Positions 10,468-63,775 of a stretch of DNA of 64,000 nt are shown in pieces. Each line of letters opens with the position of its first letter. Within the stretch, counting starts at the first letter, position 1. Below the pieces are notes generated by a model. That model searched no databases. It saw only the letters and a program-made list of their open reading frames with translations, and was not told where the DNA came from. Origin of the DNA: Zootoca vivipara (lineage: Eukaryota); assembly GCF_963506605.1 (NCBI RefSeq), contig NC_083276.1:84754001-84818000 (forward strand), written 5' to 3'. The position numbers were made by a program, and so were the translations under genes.

Positions 10468-11481
10468 GAGGAACTACTGTCCAGCTACAAAGTTGCTGAG
10501 ATCTGCATGTGTTACTCCAAGGGAAAGACTGAAACCATCACAATGTAGGAGGGCAATGAATAGAGGGCACTGTCAGATGAAGGTTCTGTGCTTTTAAAGA
10601 GTAGCCCAGGCAAAACAAAAAGCTAGAAATAGATTGTAAGTATTCAAAACCCTTCAGGGGCGTCTCCTTCACAGCTGCTGCTGTATAGGGCACATTACCA
10701 TGGACAGACTCTTAGTGCCTTAATATGGTGTTTTAGGTACTGGACCTTGGATTAAATATTCATACACCTACCACAGTTCTGCATTGTAGTTTATTCATTC
10801 ATAATACTTTGAGAGGCTGGGGCAGGGGGAAGAGAAAGGTACGGGGAAAGGCAAATAAGTATGGCTCCAGTTGGAAGCTGCCCAAACAGTGCAATAAAAA
10901 TAGTGGTGGCAGCCATCCAAGGGGTGGCAGATATTGGTGACATGGCACAATACCCGGCACCCCAACCTCAATGCAAGATTAGCAGCAAAGGGAGAAATTC
11001 TCTGCACCACCTTAAAAAGGACATTTGTTGTATCTTGACTCATAAGCGTTCTTGTATAACTTGTTTTGCAGTAACTTTTAGAGACACAGTCAGGGCTAGA
11101 GATAGCAGCAGGTCCATGTTACTGTAGCTATTATTTTATTTGAGGAAATAACTGATCAAATAGCTCTTTTCCTGGAAAAATGCTCTCGGTATACTCCATG
11201 AGCTAGCAAAGAAACCAGTGTCTCACCCTCTTCTCTCCAGTCTCTAAAGGGAACCTGTACTCCTTTCCTCATGGAAAGCAATCTTCCAATGCCTCCTCCA
11301 ACCCCATACATAAACTCCTGCTTCTAGTGTTAAAAGGGAGAAAAAGACCTTTTAGAGGTGTCATTTCTCAGCCAGTAAGGTACCAGCTGCCCATGTTAGC
11401 CTCCTCTGGAGTACACGGAAGCAGCTAATATGTTTTTGCTGCACTTTCTCATCTAAGTGACAGCAGTCATAGATTAGATTT

Positions 11482-11487
11482 TTTATT
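11482..11487 (-). terminator. Probable ANKZF1 proximal poly(A) signal
   Basis: AATAAA on the minus strand about 60 nt after the stop. Further minus-strand AATAAA occur at 11135-11140 and 10790-10795. Confidence 0.55.
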
Positions 11488-11545
11488 TCCATTCAGATTC
11501 TGGGAAGTAGATAATGAAGGCCCAAATATATATAAAAAAACCTAG

Positions 11546-14500
11546 CTAGGACAGGGCAGCATTTGCTTGTCGATGAGTTCGCAGACAGTTCGTGGAACAG
11601 AAGGAGAAGTCAAGGTAATGGAAGGGAATGCGGCCCAGTAGCGACTCCCCACATAGCCAACAGCGCCTATAGATACGAAAAAGACAGCATGAGCATGGAG
11701 TCATTGTAGTTGGAGGTCATGCCAAAAAGGAACACACCACTCACCCACCTTACCTAGTATTGGTAAGAGTTGTACTGGAGTCTTTTAGTTGGGAAGCAAG
11801 TCTCTTCTCAGCCGCCAGCGCACGCTAAGAAGCAATGCACACATACTGTTAGGAACAACAACAAAGAACTGTTCCCCAGGGTCTATAGCAAGCTTCTTCA
11901 ACATCGGCCCTCCAGATGTTTTGAGACTACAATTCCCATCATCCCTGACCACTGGTCCAGCTAGCTAGGGATGATGTGAGTTGTAGGCCAAAAACTTCTG
12001 GAGGGCTGAGGTTGAGGAAGCCTGGTCTATATGGATAAGTACCTTCATCCCATTGTACAAAATCCTATGTAAAACAAGCGGTTCACTTAGGAGGATGTGC
12101 AAGGATGTTCCAGAGCTGGGTCAAACTATAAAAGGAATCTGCTTGTATGTCACCAAGTCCAGAGTTAGCCACATTTCTTTTATTCACGGGAGCTTATGGA
12201 AACTAAAAACTAAACAGATTTCACCAGAGATATTCCTAACGGGGAGAGTGTAAGTATTTTAGTAAAATGCAGCAGAAATGCCCTATGATATCTAAGTCCA
12301 TCAGAATAACACACACAGTTTACAGAGCAGGAACAGACTGGTTCAGAGTAGCAGGTTCCAAATTCCTTTCTCAAGGCAACTTTGGCTGTATAGCAAAGAC
12401 TCAGGAAGTAGGACAGATCTGTGAGTTATTCTCTATCTCACGAAGCCTTTCTTAAATATAGGTCATGTCCATGGAAAAGAGAGAGATGCCTACCTAGATT
12501 CAGGACATATCCCAGCATGACAACATTAAGTAGATCTTCAAGATCCTCATTACATTCTAAAACAAAAAGCCCATTCTGGTTGTCTTGCACAGATGGGTTC
12601 AGAAATGGCAACAAAAACACACTAAAGTAGACAATGTTGCCTGGTTCAGGAAAAACAGTGTAAGTTGTCTTATCAAGTGTCTTTCTCAGGAGATGCTAGA
12701 ACTAGGATATCCACACCATCAGGGGTGACCCAATATAACCAACTGTCAGGAGAAGGAGAGGAAACAGCACAATCTTTTCTTTACATGAAACCATAGTTTC
12801 TCTCAGACAACATTGGTCAAACGAGCTCTCTGTGATCAGCACAGCAGATGATGCCATGTATCATATCAGGAAGCTTGTAGCACCAGAAGTGATGCCATCA
12901 TCTGTTAAGCCGCCTTTTCTTCCTTGAATCACCTGAGTCTTAGGCTCTCACCTTCTCACGATCACTCAGCAGGGCAAAACACCGTTTCTCATCCTCTTCC
13001 TGCTCAAGCAGCTGCTGTGCCTCCCGTTTCTCTTTCTCACGCTGCTTCCGCTGGGCCTTTTGTGCTTGGCGGCGTTCTGCCTGTCTGGCTTCCATTTCCG
13101 CTGTTAGGGGTCCAGGCACCTGCAATTACACAGTAGATGTGGATTCAGCAGAAAAGAGCCCAGTCCTGGCAGCATGTAGCCAGAAGAGATCCTGAAAGGG
13201 GCTCAAGTCTCCCTTTGTTCTGTTTATGCTGCTGCCCTACTACATCTCTGGATGCAAAATCCCTAGACACCATCGAAATTCATTTCCTTCATATCTCTGT
13301 TCACTCAAATAGCATATTTAGAGCTGGGAGATTTAAACAAAACACAAAAAAATCCTTCATACACATACTCAAACGTATCTTCCACTTAAATTAATGCCTG
13401 CTTGAGTGAGCATTTGATTAAGAGAAATCCAGGATGCCTTTTGCACTGAGTGTGTGATTCCAGAGAGATATGCAAAGTATGGAAGGGCAACTAAGTTACA
13501 AGGTATGGGTGGCAGGGTCTAAAGAGCCCCCTACCCCAAATAGTTGTTATGTGGGAATTAGTGGAAGGAAGAAAAAAAGGACTCTGGAATTCTTCCTATC
13601 AAGCCTCTCCTTCTGAAATTGCAAGCTGTGCAACTCAAAAACTGTCCAAGGTCAGTAACATACAAGAATAGATAAGGAGTTTTCTGTGGGCAGCTGGCTT
13701 GGCCCAGGATGATCAACTTGCACTTGCCTTCTATTTATTCACAAGTGTAAGCATCCACACCGGACACTTTCCAATTCATCATACATGCATCCAGAGCATT
13801 CTTCATACATGCATCCACCCACCTGGGCCCGGTCGTAGTCATATTTCTCAGGCTGTTCACCCCTAAACCTTCGGAATTCATTACGAGTTTGTTTATTGGC
13901 AGAAACACAGTATGGAGGCTGTTCCTGTCTGTCTCTGGGGAGGAAACACAATGTAGCTTTAATAGTCCAGATCTGTGACCTACACCACAGGCTGCCATAT
14001 GTCCGGATTTCCCCAGACATTACTGGGATTTCAAAGACGGAATTGACGTCCGGGGGGAATTTCCGGAAGGCAGCGCTTTGTCCTGGATCTTAGGCAAGTC
14101 AATAGAAAATTCACTTTTTTTGAGGCTTTCGGGGTGCTCTGGTTTTTACTTTTGGAACTATGGCAACCCTAACCACTGTAGAAGATGACACTGCTTGGAA
14201 ATGGAAGCAGCATGTGCCACATCACTTTTGTTGCTTCTACAACTGGGTACTGGAAGTGAGAGAGAAGCCAAAACCATCCCAGGCTATGAACAGATTTGAA
14301 ATTTGTCCCAGAGAGTGGAATGTCCTCCAGCTTCCTATACTTGCATAGGTACTTGGACAAAGTGGCCCTCAAGTGCTCTGGCCCTTTGAGAACAACTAAT
14401 TTTCAATACCTCTGAAAGACCCGGGCTCAGACTTAATGTGTAACTGAGTCAAGGACAGCTGACACTCAAGAGGAGCAGCTTGAATTTCATGGGGCCAGCA

Positions 14501-17500: not shown

Positions 17501-20500
17501 AACGGGTAGGCCCATTGTTGTTGCCTTTAGTGCAGCAGAAGTAACCACAATGAAGTCTGAGTTGTATAGGGTCTGAACGTAACAACTGGTCACCTATTTC
17601 CAAGAGATCCCCAGTGCCATTTATACATAAAATACATCATTTCAAATGAGAGAATGCAGAAACAGTCTGAATGATATGGAAGAGCTTCATTTCTCAATAT
17701 GGAATCTGCAGCAAGAAGGGATTACTTAGAGATACCCAGTGCAATGCCTTCCAGATGTGGTTGGACTCCAACTCCCATCAGCCCCAGCCAACAGGGCCAA
17801 TGGTCAAGGATCTTGGGACTCATTATTGGACTGCATCTGGAAAACACCACATTGCCTGCCCTGGTCTACATCATTAGGACTAGAGCGGTCTATCCTCCTC
17901 TTCTATCACTGTTTTGCTGCATAGACTACTGACAAGAACTGGCATAGACTTGCAGTAAAAGTCAACGGCATCTTTCCTTTGTGAAGGCAGAACAGCTGGG
18001 ACAATCTTACTCAAAGAGCAAAGCTCTCAAATAGCTGGCACCTTTCCATTTTGGGTTCAGCCTTGGTTCTACTAGGGTCCGCACTCACCTTGAGCAAGGC
18101 AGCCTCATTGTAGCGCCGCAGTGTGGCCCCAGCTGATTTTGCCATAGACCCTTGAGCATCTCTCACTCCTTGGGCTGTCCCTCGGCGAGCTCGCACTGTA
18201 TACCGATGGAACGTCTTATGCTCCAGCACATCATTTCTGGGAAGAAAGTGATGGTAAGCCTACAGCAAAGACCAACACCCAGGATCATCATCTTGGCATG
18301 AATGTATTCACTAGGAACAAAGTCGGGTTTTATCCATACCAGGAATGTGGAACCTGAGGCCTTCTAGATGTTGCTGGACCCCAACCACCACTGGTCCCAA
18401 CTAGCATGGCCAATGGTCAGGGATGATGGGGGTCTGTAGCCTGACATAATCCAGAAGGCCACAGGCTCCTCACTCTTTTGTAGGCAATATTGAGATGGAT
18501 GGATCAGATGTCTTTGTCCGTGTTAGGCTGAAGTGGCTTCGGAAAGGATGAAGACCTCTTATCTCACATCCTCAAGTTCACAAAATGGGTTGCTTTATAT
18601 TGCATGCATCCATGAAGACCTCAAATTCCTCCAGGGAGGAGGTCCTGGTGAGTCAGTATTGGGTGGGGGCTGTTTTTGCACACACACATTATGTGGTTGT
18701 TTTTGGCTGAATTTGCTTCGCCTCATGATGATTATGCTTTGCCTCCAACTTTAGCCTTCCTGCCTGCTGATAAACTCCTTGAATCCAGGAGATGGAGAAT
18801 CCGTGGCCATGCAGATGGTGTTGGACTACAGCTCCAACAGCCACCTGAGCATTGGCCATGTTGGCTGGGGATGATGGAGTTGGAATCCAACATCGGGAGC
18901 GCCACAGGTTCCTCATCTGATTTGCACCTTGAATGGGGTCCGACAGATTACAGATGTAAAGCACTCTAGCAAACAACATTCCCCACCCACCCAATCTCTC
19001 TCTTACGTGGACTTCCAGGAAAGCGCTCAGTGGAGACCATGAGATGAGCATCAACACTGGCCTGGAAGCACATGTGGGATCATGGTTTATCAGCCTTCTG
19101 ACACAGTCATACTGCTACAGCTCACAAGTTGGCCCACATGATAGACATTCCCCTCTGTGTTCTTACCCCTTAAAGACAGCTCCTGCAAAATGTCCCCCGC
19201 CAGCCATTAGGATCACCCAGGAGGTTCCTGAACTCTGTCTCTGAAGGGATGCCACTAGCTCTTCAGGCTCCTCCACACTGCCCTGGATGGACAAAGGCCC
19301 CCCTTCAGTTAGTGAGAGGTTACTGACTGAGCAATGAGAGCTGCTCTCAGCCTGGCTGTTAAATAGGGATTGGCAGGGTGTTAGCTGGTCCCAAACCAAC
19401 AAAAGGATTTCAATGACTGTTCCCTTGAAAGTTTCGGAAGTGGGGAATATGCTTCTTTCATCCTGCAGAAATTCAGGTTTCTTCTAAGAAAGCATCAGTT
19501 ACAAAGCAGAAATAATATCTGGAAAGCAAAATGGGCTGGCTTGATGTTAAAAATTAACGTGCAGGGGAAAGTCAGTCAGGTGACTAGATGAACTGTGCAG
19601 GACTCAAGAGATAATCCCTCACATTTATGGCAACAAGCCAACACAATTCCAACTGGCTAAAATTATAATATCTGTTTGGGAGGAAGAGATTGCAATTAAA
19701 GCAAGATAGTAGGTGGGAAAATTAAGACCAACCACTCTTATGCTTATTGCAACAGATACTACAGTACTTCCTTTAAAACCTGGCCACAACACTATCCTCA
19801 GGGTGTGTGTGTGGGTGTTCATGAGACACATTTATCATTTGGTGAGAGACAGCTGGTAACTAAAGCAGGAAGAGACCAAAAGCCAGAAAAGGAATGAGGT
19901 CCAGTAGGCTCTTTGCTTTGTTATCCTGTGACATGCCTTCATAGTGTTCAGCACACAGCGATAGACTGAGATGAGCTGGCCTTCGGCATTTCTGAACAGA
20001 ACCCGTGGGGAGCGTGGACATGGAGAGGGGCTCCGATGACTGCCTTCACTGTTGGGGTAAAATGGTGGTTCAGATTCATTGTCCAAGTCAGAGTCACTGG
20101 AATCCGACCCAGAGATGCTGGAGACATCACCTGTGGACCAAGGTAGTAACAGAAAAGAAAATCACACAGCCAGAGGGAAATGCAGAGAATTTTATATCTG
20201 AAACTCCTGACCATGAGGCAGAAAGACAGAGCATTCTCACGCAAAGAAGATACTCTGGACTGGTAAAGCTGGAAAATTCTCTACTTAAGACAGCTCAGGA
20301 CCAGAGCAGGGAAGAAATATATGTGTGGATCTAGACGACTGAGCTCCTTTGGACATACATTTGACTAATGGAGTATGTTGTCATAGCTAGAATCAAACCA
20401 AAGGGGCTAAAGCATTATTATAGTAATGAACTGTGAAATGAACTAGCATCCCACGCTGGATGAGATTGAGTCTAAGGCACCCACCTGAGACTTATTCTAC

Positions 20501-27418: not shown

Positions 27419-27575
27419 AAAATTTCTAAATACTGTATCCTAAATGATTGTGCTGTAGAACATTTGATCGTGGAACTTAATTGAGGAGAGGCTACCCTGA
27501 ACTTACTCCTAAGTGGTGCCAGAACTATGTGTGATATTTAAGTGTTGTTGAACTAGTTGGAAACAGTGACCAGAG

Positions 27576-27712
27576 CAGGCATCCCCAACCTGCGGCCCTC
27601 CAGATGTTTTGGCCTACAACTCCCATGATCCCTAGCTAACAGGACCAGTGGGTCGGGGATGATGGGAATTGTAGTCCAAAACATCTGGAGGCCTGAAGGT
27701 TGGGGATGCCTG
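27576..27712. mobile_element. hAT-type MITE
   Basis: TIR CAGGCATCCCCAACCT / AGGTTGGGGATGCCTG and perfect 8-bp TSD GACCAGAG. Confidence 0.92.
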
Positions 27713-29567
27713 GACCAGAGAGTTAACAAATTCAGCATTTATGTAATTGCTAAGGATGTCCAACACAGTCACACTTGACTTCAAAAAATGAAACCTCAAA
27801 AATCAAATGATTGGTTGAAAGTCAAGTTGAAAGGGAAAGACTAGAGGTTCAAATCTCTCCCAAGCATATTGGTGTTATTCAAAATCACAAGAATAGAAGC
27901 ATAGCTAGAATGTATACTGCAAGTCAGGGAAGATGCTAGTGTAATAGAAGCAAGGAAGCTGTTAGAGGCAATAAGGCTTCTTCCTTCCTTTCACAAAATG
28001 GGAGGTCTTGCTTAATTAAGGAGAACAAAATGGAACACATGCTTGCAAAACAAATTCAAAAAAGAAAGTAAGTTTTGAGGAGCATATAGCTAAAAACATT
28101 AAGATCAACAATAAAACATACTATTAAAAGTGTGTATGACAGATGTAAAAAGGGAAAATTATGTGCCAAGGATTCTGTCTGTCACATCCCAAAATAGGAT
28201 ACTGTAGAGCTCGAAAAAGTGTGGAAAAGGTAAACCAAAAACATTGGGTAATTTTTTAGTTTTTTAAAAAAGGTGAGTAAATTCCCCCACTGATGATTGC
28301 CTTTCACTCCACCAAGATGCCACTAAAATCCTCCTCATTATATCATTAGACCCCTTACTTGTACGTGCCAGACTAGAGATTCCCCAGACCTTACTTTAAG
28401 GTAGTTTGAGCATCAGTCTGTGTCTTTCAGTTGCCCCTGCAACAACTGTCCATGCAACTCCACGTCACTCTCCAGGTACACCTGTAACACAGTGCTGGGT
28501 GCCATATCAAGAAGCCTGGTAAGGGTTCTGTCACCCAGCAGAGTTGAAGTCACAAGGGCATAGAATTCCTGGCCCTAGTTATGGTCTTGGTCTTAGTCTT
28601 TTGCATACTTGCATCCACAGAGCTGCAGGAATTTCTCATCTGAGCCTCAGTAGATCACCTTTGGCAAATTCTATCTTCCCGGGGTCCAATAGCTCCACCA
28701 CTTAATTTTACACCTTGTAGCATAGGAACTCTTGCTTTTCTCTAGACTAGAAGTTTGAATGTGTTAGAATATTGGCTTTAAAATGCACCTTTGAGTTTGC
28801 ATATATGTTGTGCTGTACTATGAATCTATTTTGAAAATGTGCATATGAATAGATGCATACACAGGCTCTCAGATACAAAAGAGCATGTGGTTGTGGCACT
28901 GTGGGAACAGGATACTAGACTAGATAGTTTTTTTTATTTCTCTTTTTTCATTATAATGTATTTTTTACTTCTAGTATAGAAAGAAAGCTAGAACAGTAGG
29001 CTAAAATGAAAGTGAAGCTGAATAGAGTTCTTGTAAACCCCAGCTAAGTAGGTTTCCTTTAGTTGAAACGTTGTACTTTCCTTTGTATGTGGGGAGAGAT
29101 TGATATACTTGCAAGGGTATGTATCAAGTACCTGCTCTGCCTGTTCATGAAAATGAAATTAAATGTATTTAAATAACAACAACAACAACAACTTTGTTGC
29201 AGACAACAGTTTGTAAATATGATGTAAAGCAAAGTCTCAAAACCAAGAATAGCATGTTTCATGATCAGGCAGTGTTTCCTGCAATGCTCTCACTACCGAT
29301 CATTATTTCCTATCTCTTAATTTGTGCTGCTTTTCTCTCCTGCCACTTTCCTCTCTCCACTCTTTCACTCTTTTCCTTCCTTGCCCCCTGCTATTTGGTC
29401 CCCACCAAAAGCTTCCAGTTCCCTTTAAGGGTAAATTTAAATGAAATGAGTCTCCCAACCCAACTGATGCCTTCGAGTTATGTCTTAAGTGCTACTTTTT
29501 TTTTTACCCTGTCTTTCCGCCTCTCAGAGCATGTGTGACTTTGGATGACGCCCAGCTCAGTGACAAC

Positions 29568-48415: not shown

Positions 48416-63775
<15,360 letters not shown>

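Follow-up and report, generated by a model that had tools for sequence, protein, structure and literature searches.

How a piece of one gene came to lie inside an intron of another, how far it extends and whether it has any role there are the questions raised by a 64,000-nt stretch of Zootoca vivipara DNA (the window). The original prediction placed a fragment of ABCB6, consisting of an exon end, its splice donor and part of the following intron, within an intron of ANKZF1, between two MITEs. Both host genes were named correctly, the exon being coding exon 4 of ABCB6 (Table 1). The coding exons of ABCB6 lie on the plus strand, from position 48416 into the next 10 kb, and ANKZF1 occupies the minus strand from 23573 to 11549.

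The core of the match comprises positions 18605-18657 and 58504-58556, which are identical at 47 of 53 nucleotides without gaps (E = 4e-12 in a self-search within the window). The peptides proposed for the two loci were reproduced, and the splice donor GTGAGTCAGT is intact in both. Similarity past the donor was also borne out: alignment of the intron-only part (18658-18787 against 58557-58710) gave a score of 51, compared with 20.9 ± 3.8 for shuffled sequences, none of 500 being equal or better. The exon end, donor and intron are thus present, but the copy is longer than proposed, reaching leftward to about 18476 and including a splice acceptor and an exon 5′ half affected by a deletion. The full copy covers approximately 18476-18919, about 440 bases, and consists of the end of intron 3, exon 4 minus 22 nt, part of intron 4 and a MITE. 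About 310 bp separate the left MITE (MITE1) from the right one (MITE2), and identity to ABCB6 is about 70%. Within the exon, 54 of 71 aligned columns match (17/28 in the 5′ part and 37/43 in the 3′ part). The duplication runs from ABCB6 to the ANKZF1 intron, as it is the exon in ABCB6 that is coding and conserved. The motif TGAGTCA, a candidate AP-1-like site, occurs within the copied donor (18649-18655) and the ABCB6 donor (58548-58554); it is common in GTGAG donors.

Table 1. Features of the copy in the ANKZF1 intron and of the donor locus in ABCB6 (window coordinates).
Feature	Positions	Strand	Basis or remark
ANKZF1 host intron of 930 nt, removed in one piece	18237..19166	-	RNA joint 18236-19167, CT..AC
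Left outer 8-mer ATCCATAC, candidate degenerate TSD	18332..18339	+	
MITE1, old hAT-type palindromic MITE	18340..18477	+	28/127 columns off family consensus
Decayed terminal part of ABCB6 intron 3, acceptor AG included, state without hAT element	18478..18576	+	anchored extension
Copy of ABCB6 exon 4, 71/93 nt remaining, 22 nt deleted	18577..18647	+	alignment
Copied splice donor, 10/10 identical	18648..18657	+	no use seen
Copied start of ABCB6 intron 4, 81/113 columns match	18658..18785	+	alignment; shuffles
MITE2, donor-MITE junction and orientation	18786..18919	-	right limit of detectable homology
Right outer 8-mer ATTTGCAC, candidate degenerate TSD	18920..18927	+	
Donor locus: ABCB6 intron 3 upstream of hAT element	58013..58076	+	alignment
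Second hAT-type element, 336 bp, in ABCB6 intron 3	58077..58412	+	own 8-bp flanks AATTAAGG / GGTTATGG
Donor locus: ABCB6 coding exon 4, 93 nt, intact	58454..58546	+	tblastn with lacertid ABCB6
Donor locus: start of ABCB6 intron 4	58547..58700	+	alignment
Donor MITE in ABCB6 intron 4	58701..58821	-	28/110 columns off consensus

When a hAT-type element located in the donor intron is omitted, the 129-base stretch that separates MITE1 from the core is collinear with ABCB6 intron 3 followed by the 5′ portion of exon 4. For an anchored left extension made in this way, scores as high came from 2-25 genomic controls and from 10-38 shuffles, each out of 1000, compared with 256-773 of 1000 when the element was retained, and a local alignment to intron 3 was equalled by 17-26 of 2000 shuffles; several tests were run under two gap settings, and the p-values and control ranks are uncorrected. 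Detectable homology ends at a MITE terminus on both sides. Leftward of MITE1, positions 18290-18340 align with 57885-57935 at 36 of 43 columns, with 9-14 of 2000 shuffles as good; however, 173-687 of 3000 real genomic controls scored as high, and a continuation of the copy in this direction was not accepted. Rightward of MITE2 there is no anchored extension (299-654 of 1000 controls as high). A collinear block there ranked at 25 of 1000 in a narrow window but at 552 of 1000 in a wider test, and a rightward continuation was dropped because the wider and anchored tests failed. A derivation of the spacer from the DNA right of MITE2, by duplication and then deletion, was likewise discarded (67 of 300 shuffles as high).

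MITEs of one family adjoin both loci, as proposed, in equal orientation and with junctions agreeing within 1 nt, and the second MITE upstream of the copy is present in the orientation opposite to the other. The family gave 50 matches in 264 kb, 27 of them near full length. It combines terminal inverted repeats, 8-bp target site duplications (TSDs) in young copies and a high copy number, and the labels hAT and MITE are assigned on this anatomy. Its targets are TA-centred 8-mers (central TA 0.92 in 23 elements), and young members show strong hairpin folding (z = −12.6). Old and young waves of the family occur side by side; young members at 11884-12031, 27572-27713, 51030-51176 and 51664-51804 carry perfect 8-bp TSDs and form near-perfect hairpins. 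Between MITE2 and the donor MITE, 35 of 107 columns differ and two derived changes are in common, no more than between unrelated copies. A closer relationship of MITE2 to the donor MITE than to other family copies was rejected, there being no excess of sharing; the family members had been selected for resembling MITE2, so that the distance of MITE2 from the consensus is biased. Because only these two derived changes are in common, copying likely took place soon after MITE insertion, while the copies were near-identical, and the family was likely active at that time. No counterpart or footprint of MITE1 was found at the ABCB6 donor, where the right MITE stands alone.

The two 8-mers outside the pair of MITEs, ATCCATAC and ATTTGCAC, are identical at 4 of 8 positions, and the remaining four differences are transitions (lnLR 2.2, about 8-fold). 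Among unrelated flank pairs, 23 of 812 do as well as this value, which depends on MITE ends read by eye; among true pairs, 7 of 29 do. The flanks of MITE1 itself match at 3 of 8 positions, and ATTTGCAC matches the right flank of the donor MITE at 5 of 8 (lnLR 1.4). Grouping the outer 8-mers as one TSD has an advantage of 7-11 ln units over a clean later MITE1 insertion, of 1.7-4.5 over a later MITE1 insertion with an adjacent deletion and of 1.5-2.6 over two unrelated targets. One old TSD around the whole two-MITE unit may be regarded as a weak candidate.

The element in ABCB6 intron 3 belongs to a second, multi-copy hAT-type family (40 of 1614 candidates scored, with ends set by alignment). 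Since the copy does not carry this element, it would predate it, and the element likely entered intron 3 after copying; a composite of this element and the donor MITE is ruled out for the same reason. The second family, about 340 bp long and with similar termini, has two copies in ABCB6 introns (58077-58412 and 54265-54469) and many genome-wide.

Whole-genome searches returned one donor and one copy, or the query alone, among the best-scoring candidates, so that more decayed copies could escape; the further copies for which the original prediction proposed a search did not appear among these. An origin of the spacer from another genomic place was dismissed, as a search of the same genome returned the self match only. 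No remnant of an ABCB6 exon other than exon 4 was found in the 264 kb around the locus and the gene order is undisturbed, which speaks against the other origin suggested earlier, a scar of a larger rearrangement such as a gene-scale duplication or inversion. AN1 zinc fingers of the ZFAND2B type lie downstream of ABCB6, about 26 kb past it, on the minus strand. As this order agrees with the human one, ABCB6 followed by ZFAND2B-type zinc fingers, no rearrangement is indicated. The same 264 kb contain 22 two-copy matches; they were set aside as a base rate, since only a minority had been compared with the whole genome. About 15-46 kb upstream of the window, blocks of 936, 159 and 243 bp that are 85-97% identical form an inverted pair. 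One of them ends in a C-terminus that we take to be alpha-tubulin-like; the blocks are likely head-to-head tubulin paralogues. The acidic C-terminal tail of ABCB6 (about 73,440-73,720 in window numbering) is long and lineage-variable in squamates and is missing from the bird and turtle records.

The copy is common to two other organisms. In organism B, a DNA contig spans 18433-18774 and shows 29 substitutions and a gap of 5 nt; in organism C, a contig of low depth spans 18563-18713 and shows 10 substitutions. Corrected intron divergence is 0.37 between the copy and ABCB6 and 0.09 between the window species (organism A) and organism B. The ratio of 4.1 suggests that the copy is about four times older than the A/B split. 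The crown age of Lacertini is given as 15-47 Ma, with 37.6 Ma in the study itself (PMC6733905, text excerpts); if organism B is another Lacertini genus, the event would be, very roughly and from few sites, 60-190 Ma old.

Mismatch between the copy and ABCB6 amounts to 28% in intron 4, to 31% in both intron 3 and the MITE, and to 21% (17 of 81 columns) in the exon together with the ten donor bases. The ABCB6 exon lineage is held by selection, so that changes can accumulate freely in the copied exon alone; an exon value of about half the intron value, and hence a difference between exon and intron, is therefore expected. The better preservation ascribed earlier to exon and donor applies to the 53-nt core but not to the whole exon with its donor, for which 17 of 81 mismatches have a P of 0.65-0.97 under one-lineage neutral rates of 0.14-0.20. 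Under these rates even the core is not clearly better kept (P 0.07-0.37). Its last 39 nt, 18619-18657, contain 2 mismatches (P 0.009-0.075, uncorrected for scanning), and the contrast of 47/53 in the core with 17/28 in the exon 5′ part gives a Fisher p of 0.008, with the boundary set post hoc. At 18625 and 18644, two of the six core mismatches, organisms B and C have the ABCB6 letter among the rows listed, and the common ancestor of A, B and C may have had a stretch identical to ABCB6 at 18619-18657. Both changes arose on the organism A line, matching the neutral-rate prediction. Between A and B, at least 3 of 53 core positions and 26 of 284 positions in the rest have changed (p 0.59). At 18644, organism A RNA reads (run X23, one start) have G versus C in the window, and the site may be polymorphic. 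The preserved core is more simply explained by chance combined with ascertainment, or by an old conversion patch, than by function; a later conversion patch or past selection on the core is possible. The copy as a whole has likely been decaying without function since insertion.

Transcription was followed in stranded raw reads of runs X21, X22 and X23 (about 6 in 100 of each), in which coverage was low, the ANKZF1 exons having a depth of 2-10. Among the 15 of 43 joints listed, the one that removes the host intron in ANKZF1 sense was seen in 11 reads of X21, 3 of X22 and 0 of X23, and in a contig of X17. The suggested use of the copied donor in an antisense transcript found no counterpart in the reads: no plus-strand read came from the copy in the approximately 6 in 100 of each run, a depth at which rare use is possible, and the exon/intron contrast behind the suggestion is expected without function. 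X22 has zero plus-strand reads in 18556-19096, and the single plus-strand read of X21 carries ABCB6 letters at six differences and is best interpreted as cross-mapped mRNA of ABCB6. Three ANKZF1-sense reads of X23, all with one start, pass through the copied donor unspliced, and the organism C contig crosses both the copied acceptor and donor sites unspliced. No joint was listed in 18432-19300. Exonisation of the copy into ANKZF1 was rejected, as a protein insert at this junction appears in 0 of 15 lacertid records and in 0 of the 30 readable among 32 wider matches. A search of the copy against Rfam gave no match. Elsewhere, X22 and X23 contain plus-strand reads, at a depth of about 1, over the ANKZF1 3′ UTR (10982-11522). 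They suggest some read-through from the tail-to-tail neighbouring gene, which we take to be GLB1L-like, with a contig end near 10765.

We lean, with some reserve, towards an origin in a single event, in which one ABCB6 copy of about 440 bases arose when a break was repaired, or replication switched template, at a MITE in the ANKZF1 intron; this copy would since have decayed without function. A DNA break or stalled fork would have occurred at the hairpin-forming MITE resident there, and one broken end would have annealed to the ABCB6 MITE 40 kb off, whose arm was near-identical. Synthesis would then have run from the ABCB6 MITE through exon 4, and rejoining at the resident MITE end would have needed short or no homology. 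The expected outcome would be two MITEs around an ABCB6 piece, with one old TSD outside; the second hAT element would have reached ABCB6 intron 3 at a later time. One donor and one copy, 40 kb apart on the same chromosome, speak for repair, and the size of the copy is within the range given for repair-mediated duplications (PMC2671141, in the sections available) and for gap-filled single-copy Pack-TIRs (PMC8277862, likewise). This is the simplest account that needs no lost element, the donor being without MITE1, although two whole MITEs, not halves of one, are not a textbook gap-filling product. A processed retrocopy had been excluded from the start, and rightly: intron 3 and 4 sequence is retained on both sides of the exon instead of being gone, and there is no poly(A) tail. 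The template may have been unspliced RNA, which is compatible with retained introns (PMC5110952, in excerpt).

A capture by hAT/MITE elements, as suggested earlier, keeps in its favour that homology stops at MITE ends and that a weak TSD candidate exists, but no further copies were found and the donor has no left MITE. In its explicit form, two MITEs flanking exon 4 would have moved together by a transposase, as a macrotransposon or through end bypass, and the left donor MITE would have been lost or never fixed. Besides the MITE termini and the candidate outer TSD, the left junction at a TA-centred 8-mer resembling the family targets and the probable activity of the family agree with such a move. 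Precedents are described, as far as the quoted sections of these papers go, for Ac macrotransposons (PMC9910405), neighbouring insertions (PMC8903248) and P-element end bypass (PMC8277862). We nevertheless think this composite move unlikely: the donor site shows neither a left MITE nor a footprint, no other copies were found in the genome, the excised ABCB6 exon would need restoring, and repair predicts an identical TSD. It is similarly doubtful that the locus is a fossil vertebrate macrotransposon of a lacertid ancestor, made of two hAT MITEs and an exon, with a 40-kb hop, an 8-bp TSD and a core later gene-converted from ABCB6.

The copy could instead be a repair insertion independent of MITEs, or the relic of a longer duplication, with MITE1 arriving later together with an adjacent deletion and the right MITE boundary being an artefact of decay. 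The left block beyond MITE1, significant against shuffles, the collinear block right of MITE2 in the narrow window and the small disadvantage of a later MITE1 with deletion (1.7-4.5 ln units under outer-TSD grouping) fit this proposal. Yet the left block is matched by many genomic controls and the right one fails the wider and anchored tests, while the 264 kb hold no second ABCB6 exon remnant and the zinc fingers stand downstream of ABCB6 as in the human order; we consider it improbable. Least credible, and very unlikely in our judgement, is that the copy is a functional element, either an antisense plus-strand exon over ANKZF1 or a regulatory site. The copied AG and GT are both intact, the 39-nt core has few mismatches, and transcription is described for some Pack-TIRs and for one exon duplicated by repair in the text sections consulted (PMC8277862, PMC2671141). 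Against it stand the lack of plus-strand reads from the copy in X21, X22 and X23 at low depth, the unspliced ANKZF1-sense reads and organism C contig, core changes at the neutral rate on the A line with no core-versus-rest difference between A and B, and the empty Rfam search.

Among known systems, the locus resembles repair-mediated duplications as characterised in the available part of Pace et al. (2009, PMC2671141): it is a single-copy, same-chromosome insert of at least 50 bp with one intact donor and one acceptor, and it keeps introns and has no poly(A) tract. Duplications of that kind include cases of the form intron/full exon/intron and partial-exon cases, with no coding constraint, and they mostly lie less than 5 kb away, with 58 of 1,136 further off on the same chromosome. 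The present copy differs in its distance of 40 kb and in having two near-full-length MITEs and not one split TE, the splitting of one TE into two fragments being the detection marker in that work. The same-family TIR elements around exon-containing DNA from a donor in cis recall gap-filled single-copy Pack-TIRs (Tan et al. 2021, PMC8277862, in excerpt), and the host DNA between them lies within the 100-5000 bp of that definition. The Pack-TIR screen demanded at least 90% identity and left out donors with a TE within 100 bp, whereas this copy is about 70% identical and its donor has a MITE at 58701. With Ac/Ds macrotransposons and neighbouring-insertion Pack-TYPE elements, as portrayed in parts of PMC9910405 and PMC8903248, it has in common hAT-type ends outside host DNA, an 8-bp TSD candidate and a local move. 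Unlike them, it has a donor without the left element, no amplification and a weakly supported TSD; both elements or a footprint are not present at the donor, and additional copies with different TSDs, typical of mobile multicopy Packs, were not found. Class 2 templated sequence insertions (PMC5110952, in excerpt) are similar in being patches from another locus with no poly(A) and an intact donor, but this copy is fixed and ancient, not polymorphic, and its donor is nearby. We therefore class the locus as an ancient local duplication of the repair type and not as a Pack-TIR, because two whole elements, a TE at the donor and low identity do not agree with the screening definitions.

Among the literature matches listed for ANKZF1, ABCB6 and lizard there is no paper on this locus, which is not proof of absence. 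Hundreds of exon-containing short repair duplications are documented in vertebrates (PMC2671141, PMC8277862, as far as the sections seen report), and the animal Pack-TIR screen states that a composite route could be missed (PMC8277862, in the same extracts). The event is most likely of a known and ordinary type and of little importance. The importance would be greater if outgroups showed a true two-MITE composite hop. The locus itself is serviceable as a presence/absence marker for squamate phylogeny, and it orders three events: MITE insertion, then the duplication, then the second hAT insertion.
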